UHGV virus genome: UHGV-0124967
Origin: a virus
DNA length: 52,734 bases
Reading direction: 5' to 3' (one strand)
The notes under the pieces were generated by a model. That model worked only from the letters and a program-made list of their open reading frames with translations. It ran no database searches and was not told the DNA's origin. Within the stretch, counting starts at the first letter, position 1. Each line of letters begins with the position of its first letter. Below, in pieces: positions 10,914 through 52,235 of the stretch. The position numbers and the translations under genes are program-made.

Positions 10914-13250
10914 GCGGCGAGGTTGCAACATTCCGCCTGGTCTTTGAGATTCCCTTGTTATCATTTTCATGGCTACACGTTCCATTGTTAATTCAAGTCT
11001 GCGGCTGTCTTCGTCGCTGAATCCGTTCGTGGTCTGAATGCTGATACTGACAGGCATACTAATACCGCCACCGCCGCCAATATCACGGCCCGGAATAACT
11101 CTGCCGTTCTCGCCAGGAATCATATATTGATTCCCGTTAGATGTCTGGAATAGCTCCGGCCTGTTGTGTTCCCCTACACGGTACATATTGCCACCAATGA
11201 CGCTACCACCATTAAAGCGACCGCCGCCAAAAATTGACGTAGCCAGCGACATGATCGCAGTGAGTGCCGCAGAACCAGCCGCCGCCCATGCGCCGCCAGT
11301 TGACGCCGCTGTTGCCGCCGCCGCCGGGGCCGCCGCCGCAGCAATCTGGCCTTGCGCCGCTACCGCGCCCGCCGTGGTACTTGCCTGAGTCGCTTTGCTT
11401 TGCGTTTCCATCATGATCTGATCTGCTATCCAGTTTGCAGCTATGTCTGAAAGCCTGTTACCGATATTCCCGAGGATATTGCTGCCTAAGTTAGCAAAAA
11501 CATCACTCAATGATTGAGTACCATTTAACAGGCCAACAAGTGCATTGCTCATACCACCTTTAAGGCCATTAACGCAATCACCGATAAGGCTGTTTGTGTC
11601 GCTTTGCGCCTGCCATTGCTCCCACTTCAGATCGCGGATCTGTTGCTCATAGGCTAACAGTTCCTGTTTCTGTTGCGCTTCCGTCACGCCCAGGTCGATA
11701 AGCATTTGCTTACGGACGGCCCATTCATTTTGAACCTGCTGAATAGGGTCTACTTCGCCCTTTAGCTGATCCATCGGGCTTACTATTTGCTCCCATTTGT
11801 CGCGCAATTCCTCTACCGGAATTTGTGCTAATTCTTCCTTTAGTTCCTTACCTATCCCTTTTTGCGCGGCGCGGTACTCAAGGAGAGTGATTTTACCCTG
11901 GGCGAATGCAGCATCAATGGCCTTGCCGCTCTCTAACGCTTTGCGCATAGCGGCGGCGTCTTTGTTGTACTGGTCAGAAACGCTTATACCTTTATCGCCA
12001 AGACGATCAGCTTCAGATTTCTTCTCTTTTTTCTGTTTTTTCGGTTTGTCTACTGGCTTGCCGGATCCGGTAATCGCTCCGTCATTGGCGGCATTCTGTT
12101 CATTTTTCCTTGCTTCTTCTGTAGCCTGGATTGCTGCGGTCAGATCATCCTGTAGTTGCATGACCTTGCCAACGGTCTTACCGTATTTCTTCTCGTAGTT
12201 GCTGTTATATTCGTCGGTTTGCTCTCCTACGACCTCCTTCATCCATTTGTAGGCATCCATTAGTGCCTTGATTGGCGTCACCATTGCGATGATCTTCTCG
12301 GCTACCTCGCCAGCCTTGATTCTGACATCTTCAAACATGTCGATGAATTCGCCACCAGCCGTCTTCAGGGTGTTAAAGCAGGTTTTAGCGAAATCAGCGC
12401 CTTCACTTAAAGCCTTAACACCTTTCGTTACAAGATCGATACCAGCAACAACCGTATCGGATACACCGAAAAGATCATCCAATTGCTCAACAAGTCCCAT
12501 AACCTCGACTTTAAGCTCATTCAGGGCCATGCCGGATGTGCGCGGCAACTGCGCAAACTTCTCGTTTGTTTCCTGCGTAGCCGCCTGGATTGCGTTAACC
12601 ATCCTTTCTGCCGTGATCTTACCGTCCAGCATTTCGGCGCGGAATTGGCCCATTGATAACCCCATCTGGCGTGCCATTGTCTGTACGATGGTCGGGGTGT
12701 TTTCTAACAGGCTGTTGAATTCTTCAGCACGCAACACGCCACCGTCGATAGACTGACGGAATTGACGCATTGAGTTTGACATCTGCTCCGCTGACGCGCC
12801 GCCCAACGCCCCCATTTTCTGAATCGTACCTACCAGGTTAAGCAATTGCCCTTCAGTGGCGGACGTGTTCTTCAGTGAGATAGCTAAGCCTTGCCACAGA
12901 TCCCCGGTATCCTTCATGCTTTGGCCTGTTTCTTTTGATATTGCTTTCAGGCCATCAAAAACCCGTCCGGCGGACTCCGCATCGCCCGTAAGCATTTTGA
13001 TTTTTACGCGAAGCATTTTTGCTTGCTCCGCCATATCCATAAATTGACGCACGGCCTCCGCAGCAATTAGCAAATGGATAACCCTGGTCAGTGCCTTGAT
13101 GGATGTTTTCAGGGTGTTTACCTGGCGGTCAGCCTGTTTTGCGCCGCGCTCTATACGCCCAAAGGCCTGGTCTGCCTGTCGTTGTGCAACGAGAAGTTGA
13201 CCAGTTTTCGCATCAACTTCGTAATAAATTGTACCTACACTGGTAGCCAT
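10908..13250 (-). CDS. H: tail tape measure protein
   Basis: 780 aa; alpha-helical Ala/Gln-rich body, Gly-rich C-terminus; between chaperone and M. Confidence 0.85.
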   Translation of the reverse strand: MATSVGTIYYEVDAKTGQLLVAQRQADQAFGRIERGAKQADRQVNTLKTSIKALTRVIHLLIAAEAVRQFMDMAEQAKMLRVKIKMLTGDAESAGRVFDGLKAISKETGQSMKDTGDLWQGLAISLKNTSATEGQLLNLVGTIQKMGALGGASAEQMSNSMRQFRQSIDGGVLRAEEFNSLLENTPTIVQTMARQMGLSMGQFRAEMLDGKITAERMVNAIQAATQETNEKFAQLPRTSGMALNELKVEVMGLVEQLDDLFGVSDTVVAGIDLVTKGVKALSEGADFAKTCFNTLKTAGGEFIDMFEDVRIKAGEVAEKIIAMVTPIKALMDAYKWMKEVVGEQTDEYNSNYEKKYGKTVGKVMQLQDDLTAAIQATEEARKNEQNAANDGAITGSGKPVDKPKKQKKEKKSEADRLGDKGISVSDQYNKDAAAMRKALESGKAIDAAFAQGKITLLEYRAAQKGIGKELKEELAQIPVEELRDKWEQIVSPMDQLKGEVDPIQQVQNEWAVRKQMLIDLGVTEAQQKQELLAYEQQIRDLKWEQWQAQSDTNSLIGDCVNGLKGGMSNALVGLLNGTQSLSDVFANLGSNILGNIGNRLSDIAANWIADQIMMETQSKATQASTTAGAVAAQGQIAAAAAPAAAATAASTGGAWAAAGSAALTAIMSLATSIFGGGRFNGGSVIGGNMYRVGEHNRPELFQTSNGNQYMIPGENGRVIPGRDIGGGGGISMPVSISIQTTNGFSDEDSRRLELTMERVAMKMITRESQRPGGMLQPRRK

Positions 13251-18991: not shown

Positions 18992-20281
18992 TTAGAAATA
19001 AGTGTTAAAGTCAGGGACTTCGCCTTTTTTGTTTTCACTTGCTGTGTTGGCGGCTAGCGGAGTTGCTTTACCCAGGGATTTAAACATTGCCTCTAATGCT
19101 TCACCGCTTAATGCGTTAGCAACAATTTCGCCGTGAACTTTTGCTACTGCGGCGCGTTTTTCTGCTACTTCTTTATTTGCGTTTGCTGCAATTTCTTCTT
19201 TAATTGCTTTCTGGTTGGTCTGTAATTCTTCTTGGTTGGTCTGCAATTCTTTTACGCTTGCCTGTACTGGTTTTAATGCCTCTGCTACTGCATTAGCGAT
19301 ATTGGCGGCTAAGCCTTCGTTAATTTCTTTTACCAGTTCGGCGCGTTCTTCTTTTGTCAAAGGCATGGGATCGTCCTCCGATTTATTGGCCTTAATTTTT
19401 TCATTCAGGGAGAAAAGATTAGAAAGGTGTTCAGCGAACTGAGCAAACCATGATTTACTTTCCTCGTTGGTTGCAAGCTCGCCATTATTGATAATAATTT
19501 TATCAGCCTGTTTTTCGTAGTTGTATCTTTCCGCACGGTTTTCATTAGTGGCGATCGTCACCTCTCTATCAGTGAAGTCCACCACGTATACGTAATCAGC
19601 GTCAGGGAACATTTCCCGCGCGGCAGCGGTTAACTGTTTTTCAAGTGTGCGATAGCTATTTTCTTTCATTGCCACCGCCATTAACGGCTTCGCCTGGTCG
19701 GTATTAACCATTAAGCCTACGCCCTGTTCCGGCGAAGCGGCTGGCGGCTCATGCAGCAAGATAGCGTCATGGTCGATCGACATGATTTTCACTACATGGT
19801 CAGCACCCTGGGCTTTCATTTTTTCGGTGGCTGGCATACGCTGGCGATATACAGCGACGGACGACCAGATAGGATCTTTGCTTTCTCCTTTCTCCAGTGC
19901 TTCCAGTCGGGCTAATAATTCGCGGCCCTGGCTTGAATGGCTGGCGGTTTCCACATCCACCCATTTTTCCACATAAACACGGTTGCCGCGTAACTCAACG
20001 TTTCTGTTCCACGCACCACAAAAACCCGTGTTTAATCCTTCCGGGCTAAATGCTGAAACAAATTTACCGTCAACGGTAGGATGGCCCAGCGGGGCAAGCG
20101 TACCCTCCAGTGACTGGTAATTAGCGATAATTTCAGCTTCCGGGTAATATTCCCGGTTCATTACGATGTTAAAGGGTAACGTGTAGGACGGAACAACAAT
20201 ATGTTCCCGCCCGTTATACGTTTCCCGGCGTATGGTATTAGCGGTTAATTTGGTATTAACCTGAATTAATTCTTTACTCAC
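18992..20281 (-). CDS. putative prohead protease / scaffold protein
   Basis: Likely GTG start at 20281 with GGGAG 8 nt upstream (track ORF begins at TTG 20296); C-terminal half is coiled-coil scaffold-like with ELQTNQEELQTNQK repeat. Confidence 0.55.
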   Translation of the reverse strand: MSKELIQVNTKLTANTIRRETYNGREHIVVPSYTLPFNIVMNREYYPEAEIIANYQSLEGTLAPLGHPTVDGKFVSAFSPEGLNTGFCGAWNRNVELRGNRVYVEKWVDVETASHSSQGRELLARLEALEKGESKDPIWSSVAVYRQRMPATEKMKAQGADHVVKIMSIDHDAILLHEPPAASPEQGVGLMVNTDQAKPLMAVAMKENSYRTLEKQLTAAAREMFPDADYVYVVDFTDREVTIATNENRAERYNYEKQADKIIINNGELATNEESKSWFAQFAEHLSNLFSLNEKIKANKSEDDPMPLTKEERAELVKEINEGLAANIANAVAEALKPVQASVKELQTNQEELQTNQKAIKEEIAANANKEVAEKRAAVAKVHGEIVANALSGEALEAMFKSLGKATPLAANTASENKKGEVPDFNTYF

Positions 20282-21231: not shown

Positions 21232-22543
21232 CGTTTTCCTCTTCCAGTTCTACCTCACTAGCCGGGCCATTATATCCGGCAGCTTCGCGGATCTCGTCAC
21301 CGCTGAATATTTCCTCACCAGTAGCGAGACATGCCTGATTGATTTGTGCCATTTTGTATGCCGCGTCGAGTAGCTCTGCTTTTGTCATGGCGTTAAGGTC
21401 GTCCCACAGTACAGATACGTCTACTGGCATACTGATAAGGCGGAGATCTGCCATCTTGAGGAATAGCTCCTCAAGCTCGCCTCCTATTTCCTCACGGCGG
21501 GTCATGCAGCGGTTATTGAAGTAGCGGAGGTCTTCGGTTGATGCGCGTTCGCCCTGCTGATTCCCAACCAGGATACGCGTTGGAATATCGATACCAGCGG
21601 CTGCGGTTTGCAGGTTGACGTCATAGGTAGCGGAAGGATCTGCTACGGCAGTAACCAGCGGGCTAACGGTAGCTCCCTGTAATGCCATCATCACATCATT
21701 ACCTTTATTTATATCCTCTGCCGCTTCATTGAATTTTTCGCGTAGCTCTGTAACGTCGCAACCGTATGTTGCAGCCAGAGAACGGAAATCAATTTCTTTA
21801 TCGAACGAGATAGCCAGTTGACGTGCTGCGTTTTTCAGGAATGATTCACCGCTGCCGCCTTCCACTTTCTCCAGCGAAACGAATGCGTTATAGGACGGTT
21901 CAAGGAAGGCGATGGCATCATCAGAATAGTCGCCAAAGATAAATATGCGATCGGGATGTATCTTTCTTGCTATGGCCTTACTGTTAATGCGCTCCTTGTA
22001 TTCCCACCATGTCGGCAGGCCATAGTTTTCATTATCCGGGTTTTCTTCGAAGTCCTTCGGTGTAAGAGCACCAGCCCATACAGGGGTAAATTTGGCAATG
22101 CCTACACCTTTTGTTACTGGCTGATCCCACGGCTTGTTATCCCTGACGTGAATTAACAGTCCAGCATAACGACCGATGAGGCGGCGGCGATCGCATTCAG
22201 CTATGACGCGCCAGAAACGATTATCAAATTGTTTTTTGATTTCTCTTTCCCACGATGTTTCATTTTCCGCTTTCTCGTCTTCCGTACCTTCAATCAGCGT
22301 TGGCCTGGTGCGCCAGCACGTAGTAATGATCTTCTCAATAGCACCGTGAGCGATACCACCGCGACGATACAGTTTGTATAAATCGGCATAGGTGATTTCT
22401 TCTTTGAATCCGTATTCACTCCACGCAGCATCACGTTTTGCATCAATACCCATTGAGAATGGGTTAGCAGCTGCATAGCGGGCAAAGGCCGCCTGGCGTT
22501 GAGACAAGGCAGCATTAACCGCCAATTCTAAATTGGATGGCAT
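21173..22543 (-). CDS. portal protein
   Basis: ATG 22543 with AGGAG RBS (track ORF starts 22564); acidic C-terminus; between TerL and head morphogenesis gene. Confidence 0.7.
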   Translation of the reverse strand: MPSNLELAVNAALSQRQAAFARYAAANPFSMGIDAKRDAAWSEYGFKEEITYADLYKLYRRGGIAHGAIEKIITTCWRTRPTLIEGTEDEKAENETSWEREIKKQFDNRFWRVIAECDRRRLIGRYAGLLIHVRDNKPWDQPVTKGVGIAKFTPVWAGALTPKDFEENPDNENYGLPTWWEYKERINSKAIARKIHPDRIFIFGDYSDDAIAFLEPSYNAFVSLEKVEGGSGESFLKNAARQLAISFDKEIDFRSLAATYGCDVTELREKFNEAAEDINKGNDVMMALQGATVSPLVTAVADPSATYDVNLQTAAAGIDIPTRILVGNQQGERASTEDLRYFNNRCMTRREEIGGELEELFLKMADLRLISMPVDVSVLWDDLNAMTKAELLDAAYKMAQINQACLATGEEIFSGDEIREAAGYNGPASEVELEEENDDESEEDNQANTSSRDNAI

Positions 22544-40502: not shown

Positions 40503-40922
40503 CTAAAAAGGAATATCGTCGTCAAAGTCCATCGGAGGCGGATTATTCCCGTTATTATTCTGCTGCTGCGGCGGCGCTTTCTGCTGCTGTCCTTGCTGCT
40601 GGCCTTGTTGGTTAACATTCATGAATTCAAATTCGTTAACCGCCACTTCTACCGCAGTCCACTTCGTGCCGTCGTTCCGGTCATATTGCCGAACATCCAG
40701 GCGACCGCTTACCACTATTTTTCCACCCTTGCGGATATGTGGCGCTAATTTTTCCGCACGCTCGCCAAATACCAGACAAGTGATCCACATTACCCGCTTA
40801 TTATCACCGTAGCCATTCGTTACAGCTAACGGGAAGCTACCGATCGCTTTACCGCTTTGCGTGTAGCGGACTTCCATGTCATTTCCGATATTCCCGCCCA
40901 GCGTAATTGAATTTAAGCTCAT
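40503..40922 (-). CDS. ssb: single-stranded DNA-binding protein
   Basis: 139 aa; OB-fold-like N-terminus, Gln/Gly/Pro-rich linker, acidic tail ending DDDIPF. Confidence 0.9.
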   Translation of the reverse strand: MSLNSITLGGNIGNDMEVRYTQSGKAIGSFPLAVTNGYGDNKRVMWITCLVFGERAEKLAPHIRKGGKIVVSGRLDVRQYDRNDGTKWTAVEVAVNEFEFMNVNQQGQQQGQQQKAPPQQQNNNGNNPPPMDFDDDIPF

Positions 40923-42502: not shown

Positions 42503-43150
42503 TTATGGCAGGTTTACGATCTTCGCATCAACCACCACGCCTATAATTTTTGATTCTGGATTCATAGGGATTGGCGGATACAGCGGATTGAGCGAACGTA
42601 AAAGCCTTTGACCTCCATCAATAATCAACTGTTTAAACGTCGGTATCTGCCATTCCTCAAGCTGGGCTATAACCAGTTTGCCGTCAATAGCTGGCGCGTG
42701 CGGGTCAACAAGTATCATCGTCCCCGCCGGGATGCTCAACCCCTGCGGCGCGTTCATTGATTCACCTTTGGCAACCAGCCAGTAACTGTCATCTGAACAA
42801 ATAACGCTAGTCGTAACGTGTCGTAATGCTGAACGCCTTGCGTCATCCATATTGTTTACTGTGTCCTTCCAGTCAATAACCGGGTAACTACCTAAATCAC
42901 GCGGCGGCACAGCCTGAAGTGTATTAGAAACAGAATCATCAATGACCATACCATCATGTGTAACAGTGAACTGCCGACGACCAAGCTCTCGCATAATCCG
43001 CGCAATATCTTCAAGATTTGGCTCGCGGCGACCGTTCAGCCAGTGTGACAGGTCGCCTTTAGTTATCCCCATGCGATCCGCTAGTGAATCCTGGCTCATG
43101 CCCTGCGCCCGCATGAGCTGCTTTGCTAAGTCATACCATTTTGTTTTCAT
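42503..43150 (-). CDS. CI-like repressor (HTH plus S24 LexA-like self-cleaving domain)
   Basis: 215 aa; N-terminal HTH (QDSLADRMGITKGDLSHWLNGRR), C-terminal GESM...K pattern. Confidence 0.85.
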   Translation of the reverse strand: MKTKWYDLAKQLMRAQGMSQDSLADRMGITKGDLSHWLNGRREPNLEDIARIMRELGRRQFTVTHDGMVIDDSVSNTLQAVPPRDLGSYPVIDWKDTVNNMDDARRSALRHVTTSVICSDDSYWLVAKGESMNAPQGLSIPAGTMILVDPHAPAIDGKLVIAQLEEWQIPTFKQLIIDGGQRLLRSLNPLYPPIPMNPESKIIGVVVDAKIVNLP

Positions 43151-43210
43151 GTCGCTACCCTATAACCTCAAAAAAGTTTGATGCAAGTCACAAAACGTGT
43201 ATTTTAAGCC

Positions 43211-43238
43211 TTGATCTTAAAATTCCATTTTGTAAACT
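43211..43238 (+). promoter_or_regulatory. putative rightward early promoter (pR-like)
   Basis: TTGATC (43211-43216), 16 bp, TG-n-TAAACT (43231-43238); followed by palindromes. Confidence 0.45.
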
Positions 43239-43275
43239 TGCAGACAAGGTAAGGCCATACTTGCAAAGACGCAAG
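43237..43275. promoter_or_regulatory. candidate operator palindromes
   Basis: CTTGCAGACAAG (43237-43248) and CTTGCAAAGACGCAAG (43260-43275); similar GCAAG/CTTGC half-sites at 42161-42183. Confidence 0.35.
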
Positions 43276-43456
43276 GAAAAAGATAACGGAAGGCACAAAA
43301 AGGCACTTACCTTAAGCTCTTTAAAAATCCGGTGTCGCTGCGAAGCGAAAAACAAATATCACGCAACGGCGGGATCTGTTGAGCGGTCAGTCACTGCTAT
43401 CTAATGCTAATGGGATGCCCGCCCGCGCGTTCACTCTAACCATAGGAGAAAACACG

Positions 43457-43714
43457 ATGAGTATGCACATGATGAATGAAGTATGGAACGTAAAACTTAA
43501 CAGCCCGATTCAAAAACTTGTCTTAATGGCTCTGGCTGAAAAGGCAGATAACAAAGGACGGGTACATGATGCATCACGCAAAGAAGTAGCCGCAATGTGT
43601 GAACTTCCTGTTCATACGGTACATGATGCTTTCGCCGCGTTAATGGATAAAGGATTTGTTTGTCGTCTTGATGCATTCAGTGATGTCTATGTAGTGATGT
43701 TGCCGGAGGGATGA
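43457..43714 (+). CDS. HTH DNA-binding protein, 85 aa (first gene of rightward operon)
   Basis: ATG 43457 with AGGAG RBS (track ORF begins upstream at 43379); could be a Cro-like regulator or N-terminal module of the initiator. Confidence 0.55.
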   Translation: MSMHMMNEVWNVKLNSPIQKLVLMALAEKADNKGRVHDASRKEVAAMCELPVHTVHDAFAALMDKGFVCRLDAFSDVYVVMLPEG

Positions 43715-43717
43715 TCT

Positions 43718-44770
43718 ATGAAGTGGTTTAAGCATGACAGCGATGCGAACCGCGATGAAAAACTTCAAAACGTTTTGTTAGATTATGGCCTGGAAGGGTA
43801 CGGGCTTTATTGGTATTGCCTAGAGCTAATAACTTATGACGTAGATCAGCACAATCTAACTTTTGACCTACGACATGACGCAAGAATAATTGCGCGAAAC
43901 GTCGGATCTACTGAAAAACGTATAGAAGAAATGATGAAATACTTCATCGAAATTGGTTTGTTTGAATGTTCTCAAGGCCACATAACTTGTTTAAAGTTAT
44001 TGAAAAGGCTGGACCAATCAATGACTTCTAAAAGCGCTTACAGGGCCGCCATAAACACAGCGAAGGAGCAATTAAAATTAGAAAAGTTAATCAATCCAAC
44101 ACAAAAAGGTCATGATAGGGTCATGACCGGGTCAGGAAAGGGTCATGAATTAGAATTAGAAGTAGAAAAAGAAAGAGAAAAAGATATATACACTTCGTGT
44201 ATTGTCGAAAATGAACAAAAAATGGTCAATCAGGATGGCGTAAACGAAGCGGCATTGCGTTGCCTTGCCTTCTACAACGACAAGGCAGGATGCAAATGTC
44301 GTGATGCTAAGCCATTCGTAGAACTACTGACAGAAACAAAAACACGTAAAGCGTATACGGAGAATGAGATCACGTTAGTAATTGAGTGGGCTTTAACCCA
44401 ATGGCGTAGCCGTGGTGGAGTACCTAAGCCTATCAACATTTGCCGGGTAACTAAATTTGATGGGTATCTGACTGATGCTGAACAATGGCGCAAACTGTCA
44501 GCCACTGTAAACGCTGCCGACGTGGTGGAAGCATTTAACAGCACGTTTGACGGCCTGTTACCACCTGCCGAACTGGATCGGGATCTTGAACGCAAGATCT
44601 ATGCGTTCACTGACTACCTGAAAGACAAAAGCATTAACGGCTTTGTCGCCTACTTCGAAACGTTCAAAAACACGGCTTCAGATTTTTACTTCGGCGATGG
44701 CTTCACCGCGACACTTGATTTCCTGCTTAAACCAAAAACGCTACGTGATACGCGCGCTGGCGTTCTTTGA
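43718..44770 (+). CDS. putative replication initiator / replisome organiser with internal origin
   Basis: 350 aa; GGAGGG RBS; iteron array lies inside the coding sequence, as in lambda O-type initiators. Confidence 0.6.
   Translation: MKWFKHDSDANRDEKLQNVLLDYGLEGYGLYWYCLELITYDVDQHNLTFDLRHDARIIARNVGSTEKRIEEMMKYFIEIGLFECSQGHITCLKLLKRLDQSMTSKSAYRAAINTAKEQLKLEKLINPTQKGHDRVMTGSGKGHELELEVEKEREKDIYTSCIVENEQKMVNQDGVNEAALRCLAFYNDKAGCKCRDAKPFVELLTETKTRKAYTENEITLVIEWALTQWRSRGGVPKPINICRVTKFDGYLTDAEQWRKLSATVNAADVVEAFNSTFDGLLPPAELDRDLERKIYAFTDYLKDKSINGFVAYFETFKNTASDFYFGDGFTATLDFLLKPKTLRDTRAGVL
44108..44200. repeat. putative origin of replication: four iterons plus AT-rich region
   Basis: GGTCATGA 44108-44115, GGGTCATGA 44118-44126, GGGTCAGGA 44129-44137, GGGTCATGA 44140-44148 (about 11-bp phasing), then an A/T-rich run. 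Confidence 0.55.
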
Positions 44771-44903
44771 CCAATCACGATCCGCAAAAATCCAAAATTA
44801 CCCACAAAACAACCTCACCAGCGAGCTAAATCGCATGTGGTGCTACACTTGCTTACCTTTTTGCGATTAGCTCGTTATAGAGCGTTACAGAGAGGATTTT
44901 AAA

Positions 44904-45005
44904 ATGGACGGTAAACACGTTTTCGCCCTGGCTTTTGCCATCGCTGCGGCAATCGATGTTAACGTCGCCTTGTTCGGCGGTCTGTACCTGCTAATCAATC
45001 CATAA
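44904..45005 (+). CDS. putative small membrane peptide, 33 aa
   Basis: ATG 44904 with GAGGAT RBS; MDGKHVFALAFAIAAAIDVNVALFGGLYLLINP. Confidence 0.3.
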   Translation: MDGKHVFALAFAIAAAIDVNVALFGGLYLLINP

Positions 45006-45145
45006 CCTACCTACCATTCTGTAAATCGAAAATTAGCCACCTGATGGCGCCTCTGACGCAATAAGACACTGCAACCCGTGCAAATGGGTTACGCGGTGGT
45101 TTTTTGCATTGTAGCGCGTCTGAGGCGTTTTAAGGAGTTGGAACG

Positions 45146-45646
45146 ATGCGCAAGTTAACACACGAAGAACACATCACAGATATAGCCAAAGTTAACACTT
45201 ATGTTGAAGTATTGGGAAAAATTAAGAACCATAGAGATAAAGTCCCGTGCCGCTGCAAGATCTGTAGTCATGAGTGGTCTGCCAGGCCTTGCAACCTTAA
45301 AAGCGGGTACGGCTGTCCAAAATGCGCGAAATACGGTTTCCTTCGTCATGAGTATGGCAAACTTTACATCATGGTTGATGATCTGGAAGTGCCTACACAA
45401 ATGAAAATTGGGGTAAGTGTTCAGGAAAATAAACGAAGAAACGAGATATTAAAAAGCGCACATAAAGCAGGCGTTAGAATTCCTAATTTGCATATCGTGA
45501 AAACGTTAGAAGGGCCAACCGAAAATATACATGAACTAGAAAACACGATGCATAAGGCTTTTAGCAATTATAAAATTAACTTTCCTGTAAAATTTGATGG
45601 TAGCAATGAGTTTTTTATTACAGGCCGGAAGTATTCGACATGGTAG
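45146..45646 (+). CDS. zinc-ribbon plus T5orf172-like (GIY-YIG-like) domain protein
   Basis: 166 aa; AAGGAG RBS; CRCKICSHEW...CPKCAKYG, then KLYIMVDD...MKIGVSVQENKRRNEIL...NEFF. Confidence 0.55.
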   Translation: MRKLTHEEHITDIAKVNTYVEVLGKIKNHRDKVPCRCKICSHEWSARPCNLKSGYGCPKCAKYGFLRHEYGKLYIMVDDLEVPTQMKIGVSVQENKRRNEILKSAHKAGVRIPNLHIVKTLEGPTENIHELENTMHKAFSNYKINFPVKFDGSNEFFITGRKYSTW

Positions 45647-45715: not shown

Positions 45716-46834
45716 ATGTGTCAAAGAAAGATTAGTGATGAACAGCTAATCACTGAACATAACAACGGTCTAACGTATAAACAGATCGCCGAAAAATACG
45801 GAATGGCAAAACGCAACGTCGAACGCCTGGGCGCACGGTTGGCGAAACGCGGTTTAATATCCACGCGTCGCGCGCCGGGTTTTGGCGTCAATGGTGAGTC
45901 ATTGCTCGTCGATAAGGATGGCAATGTGATTATGCGCTGGATTAAAACAGCCCGTGATCGCGATGAAATGGAAAGGCTAATGCAATCTGCTTGTGACGCC
46001 TTCACGGAAGAAATACCCCGCGCGGAGTCCGTGCCAGTGCCGGAAATTGATTTCCAAAAAAGCCTGGCCCTTTATCCGGTATTTGATCTGCATATCGGGG
46101 CGCTTGCTCATAAAGCTGAATGCGGCGATAGCTACGACACCGGGATCGCTGAGCGCGTGCTAAATGATTTCTTCGACTACGCGGTAGGCGCTGCACCGAT
46201 GTCTGAAAAAGCTGTTTTGCTGTTAGGAGGGGATGTGCTCCACACTGACGGACTGTTACCAGTGACGCCATCAAGTAATCACGTTTTGGATTGTGATTCA
46301 CGCTACGCAAAACTTGTTTACGTGGCGATCCGGTCGGTCAGGCGTGCTGTAGGTAAGATGTTGTTGAATCATAAGGATGTAGAAATTCAGGTGTTATCAG
46401 GTAATCACGACCAGTCAGGAATGATCTGGCTACGTGCGGCGCTGAAGGCTTTTTACGAAGATGAACCGCGCGTTACTGTTGATGTGTCACCTGCCATCGT
46501 CCACCACACACAGTACGGCAAAACATTCCTTGCATATCATCACGGTCATACTATCAAAAAACCTGACAATTTGTTGTCTGCCTGCGTCTCTGACTGGCGA
46601 GAAGACTTTGGCAAGTCTGCGGCGGTTTACGCTCATTGCGGGCACTGGCATCATCAACGGCTAATTGAATCATCGTTAGGCGTTGTTGAGTATCACGGCA
46701 CGTTAGCGGGTAAAGACGCTTACTCAACTAATGGCGGCTGGCGGTCACGTCGTATGGCAGCGGTGATTATTTACAGCCAGGATTATGGTGAGATCGGGCG
46801 CTTTGTTTATTACCCTGAATATTCCATTTTGTAA
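45716..46834 (+). CDS. HTH plus calcineurin-like metallophosphoesterase domain protein
   Basis: 372 aa; N-terminal HTH; phosphoesterase motifs DLHIG, GGDVLHTDG, GNHD, HHGH, GHWHH. Confidence 0.6.
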   Translation: MCQRKISDEQLITEHNNGLTYKQIAEKYGMAKRNVERLGARLAKRGLISTRRAPGFGVNGESLLVDKDGNVIMRWIKTARDRDEMERLMQSACDAFTEEIPRAESVPVPEIDFQKSLALYPVFDLHIGALAHKAECGDSYDTGIAERVLNDFFDYAVGAAPMSEKAVLLLGGDVLHTDGLLPVTPSSNHVLDCDSRYAKLVYVAIRSVRRAVGKMLLNHKDVEIQVLSGNHDQSGMIWLRAALKAFYEDEPRVTVDVSPAIVHHTQYGKTFLAYHHGHTIKKPDNLLSACVSDWREDFGKSAAVYAHCGHWHHQRLIESSLGVVEYHGTLAGKDAYSTNGGWRSRRMAAVIIYSQDYGEIGRFVYYPEYSIL

Positions 46835-46852: not shown

Positions 46853-48274
46853 ATGGTAACTGAGCAGATAAACTCACTACTGCAGGAACGTGAAGCGTCA
46901 GTTATCGGCGGGCTGCTATTAGGCGGCCTCACTCCTAACGCGCAAGATGTTCTCGCTACGCTAGATCCTGAAGTGTTCACTATTCCGCTGTATAAGCGGG
47001 CGTTTGAAATTATCCGGGCGCAAGCCAGAAACAGGAATCTTATCGACGCGTTATTGGTTGGTGATGAGATTGGTAATGAAAACTTTGTACCGCTAATGCA
47101 AACGGCGCGATCGTGCCCTTCTGCTGCCAACCTGAAGGGATATGCACAGCTACTACGTGAAGAGCACCAGCGGCGGCAGATGTTGGAACTCATCGACGAT
47201 ATGCGCTACAAACTGGAAACTGGGACACTTGAGGTCGTCAAAGAGACGATGAAAGATTTTGATTCCCGGTATTCAAAATTAAAGGTAACAAAAGATCAGA
47301 TTATCCCGGTGCTGTTGCGCGATGCTGTCCAGGAATACACGGAAGTGCTAAGTAAACGCATGGAGTGTGGCGTGAACTCTGACAACATCAAAACAGGGAT
47401 TGACCCACTCGACGAAATGTTAGGCGGCATTAACGCTACTGATCTGGTGCTTATCGCCGGACGCCCAGGGTCTGGTAAATCGGCGTTGGCGTTGGCAATT
47501 GCCCGCGCGGCTGCTGAACGCCAATACCCTGGCGGAGAAGGTCAGCGGGTCGGCGTTTTGTTGTTCACGCTTGAAATGTCGCTCGATCAGATGACTGAAC
47601 GCGCTATCGCTGGCGCAGGGAACTTGTCAACGGATTGCTTACGTAATCCGGTAAAACTGGATGACGAAGGATGGGCGCACGTTGCCCAGGGAATGAACGC
47701 ACTTGCTGATCTCGATGTGTGGATTGTTGATGCATCACAGTTAACTGTCGAGGAAATACGCGCCACAACTGAACGAATGAAGCAGGATTATCCCAACCTG
47801 GGTATGGTAATGATTGACTACATCGGGTTAATGAAGCTGGCTAAGGCAGAACGTCACGATCTCGCTGTAGGGCAATTGTCATGGTCGTTGAAGATGATGG
47901 CGAAAGAATTGCGCGTACCAGTGTTGGCACTGGCGCAATTATCCCGCCGCGTTGAGGAACGACCAAACAAGCGCCCGAACAATTCTGATCTGCGTGATTC
48001 CGGTAATCTTGAACAGGACGCAGACCGGATCATCATGGTCTACCGCGACGGGTACTATGATGAACAGTCTGTTGCCCGCGAATATATGGAGATCATTGTT
48101 TCGAAAAACCGTCACGGGAAAACGGGGACTGTTTACCAGCGGTTTGACGACAACGGCAACATCTTACCATGCGACCAGGCCCGCGCGGCGTCAGCTTGCA
48201 TCCAGTCAATGCAACAACGTCCGTCTGCAAGCCGATTCTCACCACGAAACAACCAGAATAACGCATCTTTTTAA
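46853..48274 (+). CDS. replicative DNA helicase (DnaB family)
   Basis: 473 aa; Walker A GRPGSGKS, LFTLEMS, VMIDYIGLM, LAQLSRRVEERPNKRPNNSDLRDSGNLEQDADRIIMVYRD. Confidence 0.9.
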   Translation: MVTEQINSLLQEREASVIGGLLLGGLTPNAQDVLATLDPEVFTIPLYKRAFEIIRAQARNRNLIDALLVGDEIGNENFVPLMQTARSCPSAANLKGYAQLLREEHQRRQMLELIDDMRYKLETGTLEVVKETMKDFDSRYSKLKVTKDQIIPVLLRDAVQEYTEVLSKRMECGVNSDNIKTGIDPLDEMLGGINATDLVLIAGRPGSGKSALALAIARAAAERQYPGGEGQRVGVLLFTLEMSLDQMTERAIAGAGNLSTDCLRNPVKLDDEGWAHVAQGMNALADLDVWIVDASQLTVEEIRATTERMKQDYPNLGMVMIDYIGLMKLAKAERHDLAVGQLSWSLKMMAKELRVPVLALAQLSRRVEERPNKRPNNSDLRDSGNLEQDADRIIMVYRDGYYDEQSVAREYMEIIVSKNRHGKTGTVYQRFDDNGNILPCDQARAASACIQSMQQRPSASRFSPRNNQNNASF

Positions 48275-51958: not shown

Positions 51959-51972
51959 GTTGCCCCCCCATT

Positions 51973-52235
51973 TTTGGTCACGTTTTGGTACACAGTTTTT
52001 GTTGTACGGATATTAACAGTATTGTACGGAATTAGAAACGTGATGCCGGGTTTTGGTTACAACTTTATGATTTTTAAGTGATTTTATTGACGTGATTGAA
52101 CGGAGTTAAACGCCTTTAAACATAGTGCGCTGGTCCTGTCTGGAATGATTAGTGTAACGAATAATCATTTATAAAACATAATGTTATGTTGTTTTTGATT
52201 TTAGTTTTTGATATTTGGTCACTATTTGGTACACA
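51973..52235. repeat. two copies of a ~22-bp direct repeat flanking an AT-rich region; candidate integrase arm sites / att region
   Basis: TTTGGTCACGTTTTGGTACACA (51975-51996) and TTTGGTCACTATTTGGTACACA (52214-52235); each is itself a tandem of TTTGGT(C/A)AC. Confidence 0.35.

Follow-up and report, generated by a model that had tools for sequence, protein, structure and literature searches.

A helically phased repeat array inside a Lin1244_N-type initiator gene as the probable replication origin of a coliphage

The replication initiator gene of the virus genome UHGV-0124967 carries, within its own reading frame, four short repeats (iterons) spaced about one helical turn apart and followed by an A/T-rich run. 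This raises the question whether the repeats serve the encoded protein or the DNA and, if the latter, whether they form an origin of replication that is recognized by the product of the gene in which they lie. We analyzed 52,734 nucleotides of this genome on one strand, hereafter referred to as the window; the coordinates of the features discussed are collected in Table 1. An initial annotation of the locus had proposed an iteron-type origin embedded in the initiator gene. Comparison with other phages supports this proposal, as the repeats are conserved and co-vary with the N-terminal domain (N-domain) of the initiator, and we consider it likely that the phage replicates from the segment between the first iteron and the end of the A/T-rich run (44107–44192), with the N-domain recognizing the repeats.

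The four repeats, described in the initial annotation as 8–9 bp in length at roughly one-turn spacing, are 9-bp units with the consensus (A/G)GGTCA(T/G)GA, and their start-to-start distances are exactly 11, 11, and 11 bp. The units are built around a 6-bp palindromic core, TCATGA, which is degenerate in iteron 3; iteron 2 together with its flanks forms a 10-bp palindrome, GGTCATGACC. A repeat finder, suggested at the outset as a check, returns the same array: Tandem Repeats Finder (TRF) independently called 44104–44149 with a period of 11 and 4.2 copies (score 57). The self-match at a distance of 11 bp (26/33 at 44106) is the highest value for this period in the window, and 300 first-order Markov simulations, each of 52.7 kb, never exceeded 22. 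The equivalent fraction at periods 9–12 was likewise reached in 0/300 simulations. The iteron 9-mer itself is not enriched across the window, with 8 matches at no more than one mismatch against 8.5 expected; the exceptional feature is the phased cluster, rather than the frequency of the 9-mer. Origins of this class contain at least three tandem direct repeats in helical phase, and here there are four at 11 bp. No second phased repeat cluster of similar strength was found in the window by the period scan or by TRF.

As 11 equals 3 × 3 + 2, successive iterons occupy the three reading frames, and iteron 4 is back in the frame of iteron 1. The 11-bp repeat is a DNA signal rather than a protein repeat, because its period runs through all three frames. 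The third unit illustrates how the signal is accommodated in the coding sequence: its TGA is replaced by GGA, because the consensus would at this position read TCA-TGA and introduce a stop codon. The same adjustment is seen in homologues. Across 63 distinct loci, exact TCATGA was found in 53/82 and 74/97 cases in the two permissible frames and in 0/85 cases in the stop frame, and this avoidance is present in every lineage examined. The commonest hexamers in the stop frame (TCAGGA, TCAGAA, TCAAGA, TCATGC, and TCATGG) are each one base removed from the core. The degeneracy that the stop codon forces on every third unit means that the DNA-binding code and the protein code constrain each other. 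Among 22 distinct close relatives, none of the 24 columns of the GGTCATGA cores of iterons 1, 2, and 4 varies; in the same relatives, 53% of the upstream third-codon positions and four of the six spacer positions vary.

The protein encoded by the gene has a single Pfam match, PF14297 Lin1244_N (formerly DUF4373; residues 3–87, E = 6.9e-11), with a score of 43.2 bits against a gathering cut-off of 25, and it is thus a member of this family. Homologues in E. coli are named 'Lin1244/Lin1753 domain-containing protein' in RefSeq. The PHROG matches are 20981, 345, and 428 ('replication initiation (O-like)'); the 'O-like' matches have E-values of 8e-19 and 1e-19, the latter covering the C-terminal half only. 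In an AlphaFold2 model of the initiator, built from 75 homologues, the N-domain (residues 10–128) is predicted with confidence (predicted local distance difference test, pLDDT, 84–97) and contains a helix-turn-helix (HTH) and a β-hairpin wing. The C-terminal domain (C-domain) is confident at residues 172–262 and less so beyond. Residues 129–170 (nucleotides 44102–44227), between the two folded domains, have a pLDDT below 50. The repeats, the A/T-rich run, and a small palindrome at its right edge are all encoded in this predicted disordered linker. The model thus places them where an origin of this class is expected, between the DNA-binding and the effector domain of the initiator, and the initial description of the repeats as lying in a linker within the coding sequence agrees with it. 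The modeled N-domain is a winged helix that resembles the N-terminal domain of DnaD and RepA_N initiators, but the likeness is modest and generic for winged helices. A comparison of the initiator with PDB sequences gave nothing significant (best E = 0.44), and Foldseek against the PDB gave no match below E = 1e-3; the weak structural matches are all winged-helix proteins and were used qualitatively only. NCBIfam contains no family for the initiator.

The A/T-rich run reported after the repeats was also recovered; it begins directly 3' of iteron 4 and spans 44 bp, with 80% A+T and 80% purine on the plus strand. It lies within the lowest-GC stretch of positions 43000–45400, and TRF assigns it a period of 12 with 3.5 copies. 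An A/T-rich unwinding element next to the repeats is a further hallmark of this class of origin. The run occupies this position and is also kept in homologues, and we propose it as the DNA-unwinding element. It is internally periodic, with GAAnnn in the E. coli group and AGATT/AGATA pentamers in marine phages, and similar TAGA, AAGA, and GAA words make up the run in very distant lineages. Among close relatives the length of the run changes in 6-bp steps, and the phase of the iterons remains constant. The run may be more than a passive unwinding element.

To see how far the arrangement extends, we searched for relatives of the N-domain. A tblastn search returned 48 phage records, the majority from phages of Vibrio, Pseudoalteromonas, and Pantoea, and IMG/VR yielded 344 relatives. 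In the Vibrio, Pseudoalteromonas, and Pantoea phages the N-domain is 70–77% identical at the amino acid level, the C-domains are unrelated to that of the window, and the neighboring genes differ, with lambda-P-like or DnaB-like genes following the initiator. These phages nonetheless have four to five TCATGA-core units at 11 bp in the same position in the gene, followed by a purine-rich A/T run. As the array is kept with unrelated C-domains and neighbors, it travels with the N-domain; that is, the repeats co-vary with the DNA-binding domain independently of the effector domain. Loss of the spacing or of the sequence in homologues had been named as the finding that would overturn the origin proposal. 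Instead, about 60 distinct homologous loci show, at the corresponding place in the gene, four to five units, 11-bp spacing, the TCATGA core, and a purine-rich A/T run thereafter.

More distant relatives, to which the suggested comparison with related phages was extended, retain the layout with lineage-specific cores. Phage Athena1 has three 21-bp repeats, each consisting of TCAGTGA plus TCATGA, and VBM1 (33% identity) has three ACATGT units at 11 bp. Prophages in metagenome-assembled genomes (MAGs) assigned to several phyla carry GTCCCGACA-type units (3 to approximately 12) or AGTCAGGAGTG units, phased at 11 bp and followed by TAGAAGAGAAGAGA-like runs. In 90 loci, the self-match at 10/11 bp upstream of the purine run had a median of 0.63, compared to a mean of 0.39 in the N-domain coding region, and values of at least 0.70 were obtained in 37/90 loci versus 0/90 controls. 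The purine content of the run in homologues (median 0.82) is higher than in the best such stretch of the N-domain coding region (0.70). The automated self-match metric is coarse: arrays whose third unit is degenerate, or in which spacings of 10 and 11 bp are mixed, are under-called, and reading the loci manually is more informative. An all-period scan of the homologues was misleading, because the 5–6-bp periodicity of the purine run outscored the 11-bp array, and it was replaced by core-anchored analyses.

An exchange of modules among close relatives provides a second line of evidence. The region is 90–93% identical to Escherichia phages MagusPhagus and mEp515 and partly to mEp021, mEp010, mEp554, mEp044, and mEp013. 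We assign the window to the temperate coliphages of the mEp021 ('mEpimmI') group, which are Nus-dependent and non-lambdoid (PMC11893012). All eight aligned initiators have a near-identical C-terminal half, starting at approximately residue 177, that is joined to one of two unrelated N-terminal halves: Lin1244_N in the window, MagusPhagus, and mEp515, versus a winged helix of the HTH_36 type (PF13730) in the other five. Across the eight phages the linker DNA changes together with the N-domain. In mEp021, mEp010, mEp554, mEp044, and mEp013, four 20-bp dyad-symmetric iterons (GGTAGTGaCACAGaGTCACC) with a spacing of 22–23 bp are found in the same place. The 'DNA replication protein O' genes of these sister phages resemble the gene in the window in position, genome type, C-domain, and the succession of four repeats and an A/T-rich run, and in four of the five the run is followed by the ATACACTTCGTGTAT palindrome. 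They differ in the HTH_36 N-domain and the longer, more widely spaced iterons, which represent an alternative specificity module. Within the sister group, the iterons of mEp021 (GGTAGTGGCACAAAGCAACC) differ from those of mEp010 (GGTAGTGACACAGAGTCACC), and several positions distinguish the N-domains of the two, apparently a further instance of co-variation between iteron and initiator.

The small palindrome ATACAC-ttc-GTGTAT behaves differently from the iterons. It is common to phages of either iteron type, though the surrounding 50 bp differ: identical stretches of 15–17 bp are also found in mEp021, mEp044, and mEp013, and in mEp010 with one change. Among the compared loci it is absent from mEp554 and some of the IMG/VR relatives. 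It is possibly an accessory element of the origin.

A natural switch of specificity points in the same direction as the module exchange. In the E. coli prophages LSU61 and MFDS and two IMG/VR loci (L049 and L050), the N-domain is 82–83% identical to that of the window, closer than in the marine phages, but all five units have a CCATG core (consensus CCATGG) at the retained 11-bp spacing. Four substitutions in or next to the wing (E83D, I89V, T90R, and K93S) are fixed in the CCATGG group and differ from every TCATGA-type protein. The symmetric change of the outer base pair of the palindromic hexamer, combined with these wing substitutions, is suggestive of co-evolution between the reader and its site. 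As there is only a single switching event, this evidence is suggestive rather than statistical.

The comparisons above show how the repeats are built, that they act as a constraint on the DNA, how the domains of the initiator are arranged, and that the array evolves with the N-domain. By analogy with lambda O (PMC7466680), SPP1 gp38/oriL (PMC6316719), and pSK41 Rep (PMC5703833), we infer how binding, stoichiometry, melting, and helicase recruitment could proceed at this locus. The N-domain (residues ~10–128) would bind the four TCATGA-core units and form an oligomeric nucleoprotein complex, in which the exact 11-bp spacing of the units would line up the bound N-domains on one face of the helix. 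This complex, probably assisted by rightward early transcription through the gene, would melt the adjacent 44-bp run. The C-domain, which is interchangeable across iteron types, would then load the phage-encoded DnaB-type helicase, its likely client, onto the melted DNA, and host primase and polymerase would act after helicase loading. The early rightward promoter is placed by gene order only; the promoter scan, at the thresholds used, gave no site in the cI-proximal intergenic region.

The initial annotation had equated the layout with that of lambda O/ori, a comparison that holds for architecture and proposed mechanism but not for homology. In lambdoid phages, including Stx phages, the middle of the initiator gene contains the origin, in which tandem initiator-binding repeats precede an A/T-rich tract (PMC7466680). 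Lambda, like the window, has four such repeats. In both systems the repeats co-vary with the N-terminal part of the protein, the C-terminal part is a separate, exchangeable module, and the peptide encoded by the repeats is a dispensable-looking linker. Yet the only Pfam match of the N-domain in the window is to Lin1244_N and not to lambda O, and the initiator has no NCBIfam match. Lambda iterons are dyads of approximately 19 bp, about two helical turns apart, unlike the 9-bp units with a 6-bp palindromic core at 11 bp in the window, where no dyads of ~19 bp are found. A lambda P/DnaC-like loader was not detected among the open reading frames (ORFs) scanned, which did not include small ORFs in 44771–45145, and unlike lambda the phage in the window encodes its own DnaB-family helicase. 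An origin-containing initiator gene accompanied by a phage DnaB-type helicase is also known from gene 18 and gene 12 of Salmonella phage P22, where the helicase takes the place of a lambda P-type loader; gp18, however, is a lambda-O-type protein, unlike the Lin1244_N initiator described here.

Two further systems share part of the arrangement. In Bacillus phage SPP1, direct repeats and an A/T-rich unwinding element (oriL) lie in the gene of the origin-binding protein gp38, with a DnaB-family helicase encoded downstream (PMC6316719), as in the window. SPP1 differs in that gp39 serves as a dedicated loader and that there is another origin, oriR; homology of the initiator to gp38 was not detected. 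In the staphylococcal plasmid pSK41, four Rep boxes are located centrally in the rep gene, are bound by the N-terminal domain of Rep, and encode a dispensable linker (PMC5703833). A sequence-level match to the RepA_N initiators, to which pSK41 Rep belongs, is lacking, and these derive from Firmicute plasmids rather than from a phage of Gammaproteobacteria. That an origin is found inside an initiator gene is textbook knowledge and as a general principle unsurprising. New relative to the known layout are the different binding domain and the short palindromic units phased at one helical turn.

Several points weigh against the interpretation of the locus as an origin read by the N-domain. Palindromes of 6 bp that recur every 11 bp are at variance with the usual binding of one winged-helix dimer per ~20 bp. 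There is no obvious array in four Lin1244_N genes (L085, L113, L114, and L116), of which the last three are near-identical Treponema/Lachnospiraceae loci. The A/T-rich run is not unique, as 13 regions of the window reach 35/44 A+T. The paper on the mEpimmI group contains neither the word 'iteron' nor a mention of a replication origin (PMC11893012), and literature on the function of DUF4373/Lin1244 was not found. Finally, the array has hairpin potential: iterons 1 and 2 can form an 8-bp stem (ΔG −9.2 kcal/mol, z = −5.6), and on the minus strand a hairpin at 44128–44098 is followed by TTTTTGTGTT, a combination that was called terminator-like.

Among the other explanations for the array, the one that survives best, though we regard it as improbable, is that the repeats are sites for gene regulation, bound by the initiator N-domain or by another regulator (as an autoregulatory roadblock or for titration), with the origin located elsewhere. 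The co-variation of domain and repeats demonstrates a protein–DNA partnership and not replication as such, and a small ORF encoding a winged-helix protein, immediately upstream of the initiator gene, occurs in two versions, which are exchanged along with the initiator N-domain in the mEp group. On the other hand, a purine-rich A/T run always adjoins the array directly, where an unwinding element is classically located, and a purely regulatory role is also at odds with the lack of a comparably strong phased cluster elsewhere in the window. The small ORF does not follow the repeat type: its product is 93% identical to that of the window in MFDS, which has CCATGG units, and 67% identical in MagusPhagus, which has the same TCATGA units. 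Moreover, no homologue of it was found in 51 marine loci that retain the array. For these reasons the small winged-helix protein was rejected as the specific reader of the repeats; it may be a Cro-like protein or a regulatory paralogue.

Less probable still is that the array works through nucleic-acid structure, with a hairpin or cruciform that stops antisense (leftward) transcription or tunes how the initiator mRNA is translated. Besides the stem and the terminator-like hairpin mentioned above, two weak leftward promoter-like sites just to the right (44229–44181) would fit this explanation. Hairpin potential is, however, an automatic by-product of units that are tandem palindromes. It is the primary sequence and the 11-bp phase that are conserved, and not compensatory pairing; most of the marine homologues lack a stretch of at least five A before unit 1, and with it a T-run on the opposite (minus) strand. 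The number of promoter-like sites (3) does not exceed the expectation (3.9), and the lack of any Rfam match at E-values up to 1 in 43000–45300 also counts against a structured RNA element. As a separate observation, the signals on the minus strand could reflect a short antisense transcript across the A/T-rich run, or a coincidence arising from the palindromic units.

We see next to no room for the view that the periodicity is a protein-level repeat or a low-complexity linker (G-H-D/G-H-E and a run of E-x dipeptides) devoid of DNA function. The linker is predicted to be disordered and is compositionally simple, and the A/T-rich run does encode an E-x repeat. A protein repeat would nevertheless have a period of 33 bp, whereas the four units translate as GHD, RVMT, GSG, and GHE, and neither the frame-specific avoidance of TGA nor the switch of repeat type with the N-domain is expected for a passive linker; a protein-level repeat was rejected because it conflicts with the results for the reading frames. 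A packaging (pac/cos) or recombination site for another phage protein is a similarly far-fetched explanation which, although short repeats in phase are also seen at sites recognized by terminases, was rejected on the location of the array in a replication gene beside the immunity region and its co-variation with the initiator N-domain, and which does not account for its conservation across phages with otherwise unrelated modules.

Reading the array as the origin and the N-domain as its reader has several consequences. It assigns a testable function to DUF4373/Lin1244_N, which is proposed to bind an origin situated in the very gene that encodes it, a few dozen bases farther downstream. For the mEpimmI coliphages it indicates where the origin probably is, a question that the publication on this group leaves unaddressed, and the layout could serve to annotate origins in marine and gut phages, in hundreds of contigs. 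The switch from TCATGA to CCATGG, which comes with four fixed substitutions in the wing, is a natural starting point for swapping the specificity by experiment.

A bolder generalization, which we think is unlikely to hold in full, is that Lin1244_N/DUF4373 proteins are a large class of phage and prophage initiators across several phyla that obey one origin rule. According to this doubtful rule, 3–12 short units with a lineage-specific core, one per helical turn, would lead directly into a strand-asymmetric purine run composed of conserved TAGA, AAGA, and GAA words. It would tentatively imply that the run is read in a sequence-specific manner, for instance as single-stranded DNA by the initiator or the helicase, comparable to DnaA-trios. 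With as little confidence, the complex would be a filament running continuously along one face of the helix, in contrast to the lambda-type O-some, which is wrapped around dyad iterons.

Table 1. Position of the repeats, the initiator gene, and related or neighboring features. Coordinates refer to the window unless a locus is named.
Feature	Position	Strand	Description
Iteron 1, AGGTCATGA	44107..44115	+	Codons GGT-CAT-GAT (G-H-D)
Iteron 2, GGGTCATGA	44118..44126	+	Translated R-V-M-T; codons GTC-ATG-ACC (V-M-T)
Iteron 3, GGGTCAGGA	44129..44137	+	Degenerate unit, core TCAGGA; translated GSG
Iteron 4, GGGTCATGA	44140..44148	+	Translated G-H-E; adjoins the A/T-rich run
A/T-rich, purine-strand-biased run, ATTAGAATTAGAAGTAGAAAAAGAAAGAGAAAAAGATATATACAC	44149..44192	+	GAAnnn repeated; encodes E-L-E-L-E-V-E-K-E-R-E-K
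Small palindrome, ATACAC-ttc-GTGTAT	44188..44202	+	Hairpin in predicted fold; right edge of the A/T-rich run
Replication initiator gene, 350 aa	43718..44770	+	Lin1244_N/DUF4373 winged helix, disordered linker, C-domain (predicted)
N-terminal DNA-binding domain coding region, aa 1–128	43718..44101	+	Proposed reader of the repeats
C-terminal domain coding region, aa 171–350	44228..44767	+	Proposed helicase/replisome contact; exchangeable between iteron types
Sister iterons	L003 3703–3790 (mEp010); L002 3706–3793 (mEp021); same place in L005, L006, L007		Linker of HTH_36-type initiator
Distant Lin1244_N arrays	L118 ~760–900; L107, L109, L111, L112, L117, L103, L104, L108		GTCCCGACA (~12 units in L118), CTCCGACAA, AGTCAGGAGTG; then GA-rich runs
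Small winged-helix ORF, 84 aa	43460..43714	+	Like N-domain of O-like initiators; PHROG 4617, E = 7e-22
Endonuclease ORF	45146..45646	+	T5orf172 domain and zinc-ribbon/CapR-type region; PHROG 681; between initiator and exonuclease-like gene
Exonuclease-like protein, 372 aa, conserved	45716..46834	+	PHROG 704 'DNA repair exonuclease', E = 2.5e-139; between initiator and helicase
DnaB-family replicative helicase	46853..48274	+	Pfam DnaB_C E = 4e-76, DnaB N-terminal domain E = 9e-12; NCBIfam TIGR00665 E = 6e-96

The initiator gene sits in an immunity/replication module. Upstream of it are a cI/LexA-like repressor gene on the other strand and the small winged-helix ORF, for which NCBIfam likewise contains no family. 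Downstream are the genes for a T5orf172-type endonuclease and an exonuclease-like protein, followed by that for the DnaB-family helicase. Pfam gives no significant match for the exonuclease-like protein, which shows a weak HTH-like match at its N terminus and is possibly involved in helicase loading. Among seven related phages, the stretch containing the endonuclease ORF is matched by mEp013 and mEp021 only; in other relatives a 'homing endonuclease' is encoded instead, at a different place, between the genes for the exonuclease-like protein and the helicase. This distribution suggests mobile endonuclease insertions in the replication module.

Elsewhere in the window, TRF or the period scan detected further short arrays at 19197–19251, 22338–22370, 40582–40607, 51972–51999, and ~11265–11300. 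Their units are 21 bp (2.6 copies), 15 bp (2.3 copies), 12 bp (2.2 copies), and 11 bp (TTTTGGTACACAG, 2.3 copies), and near 11.28 kb the periodicity is of a triplet type.

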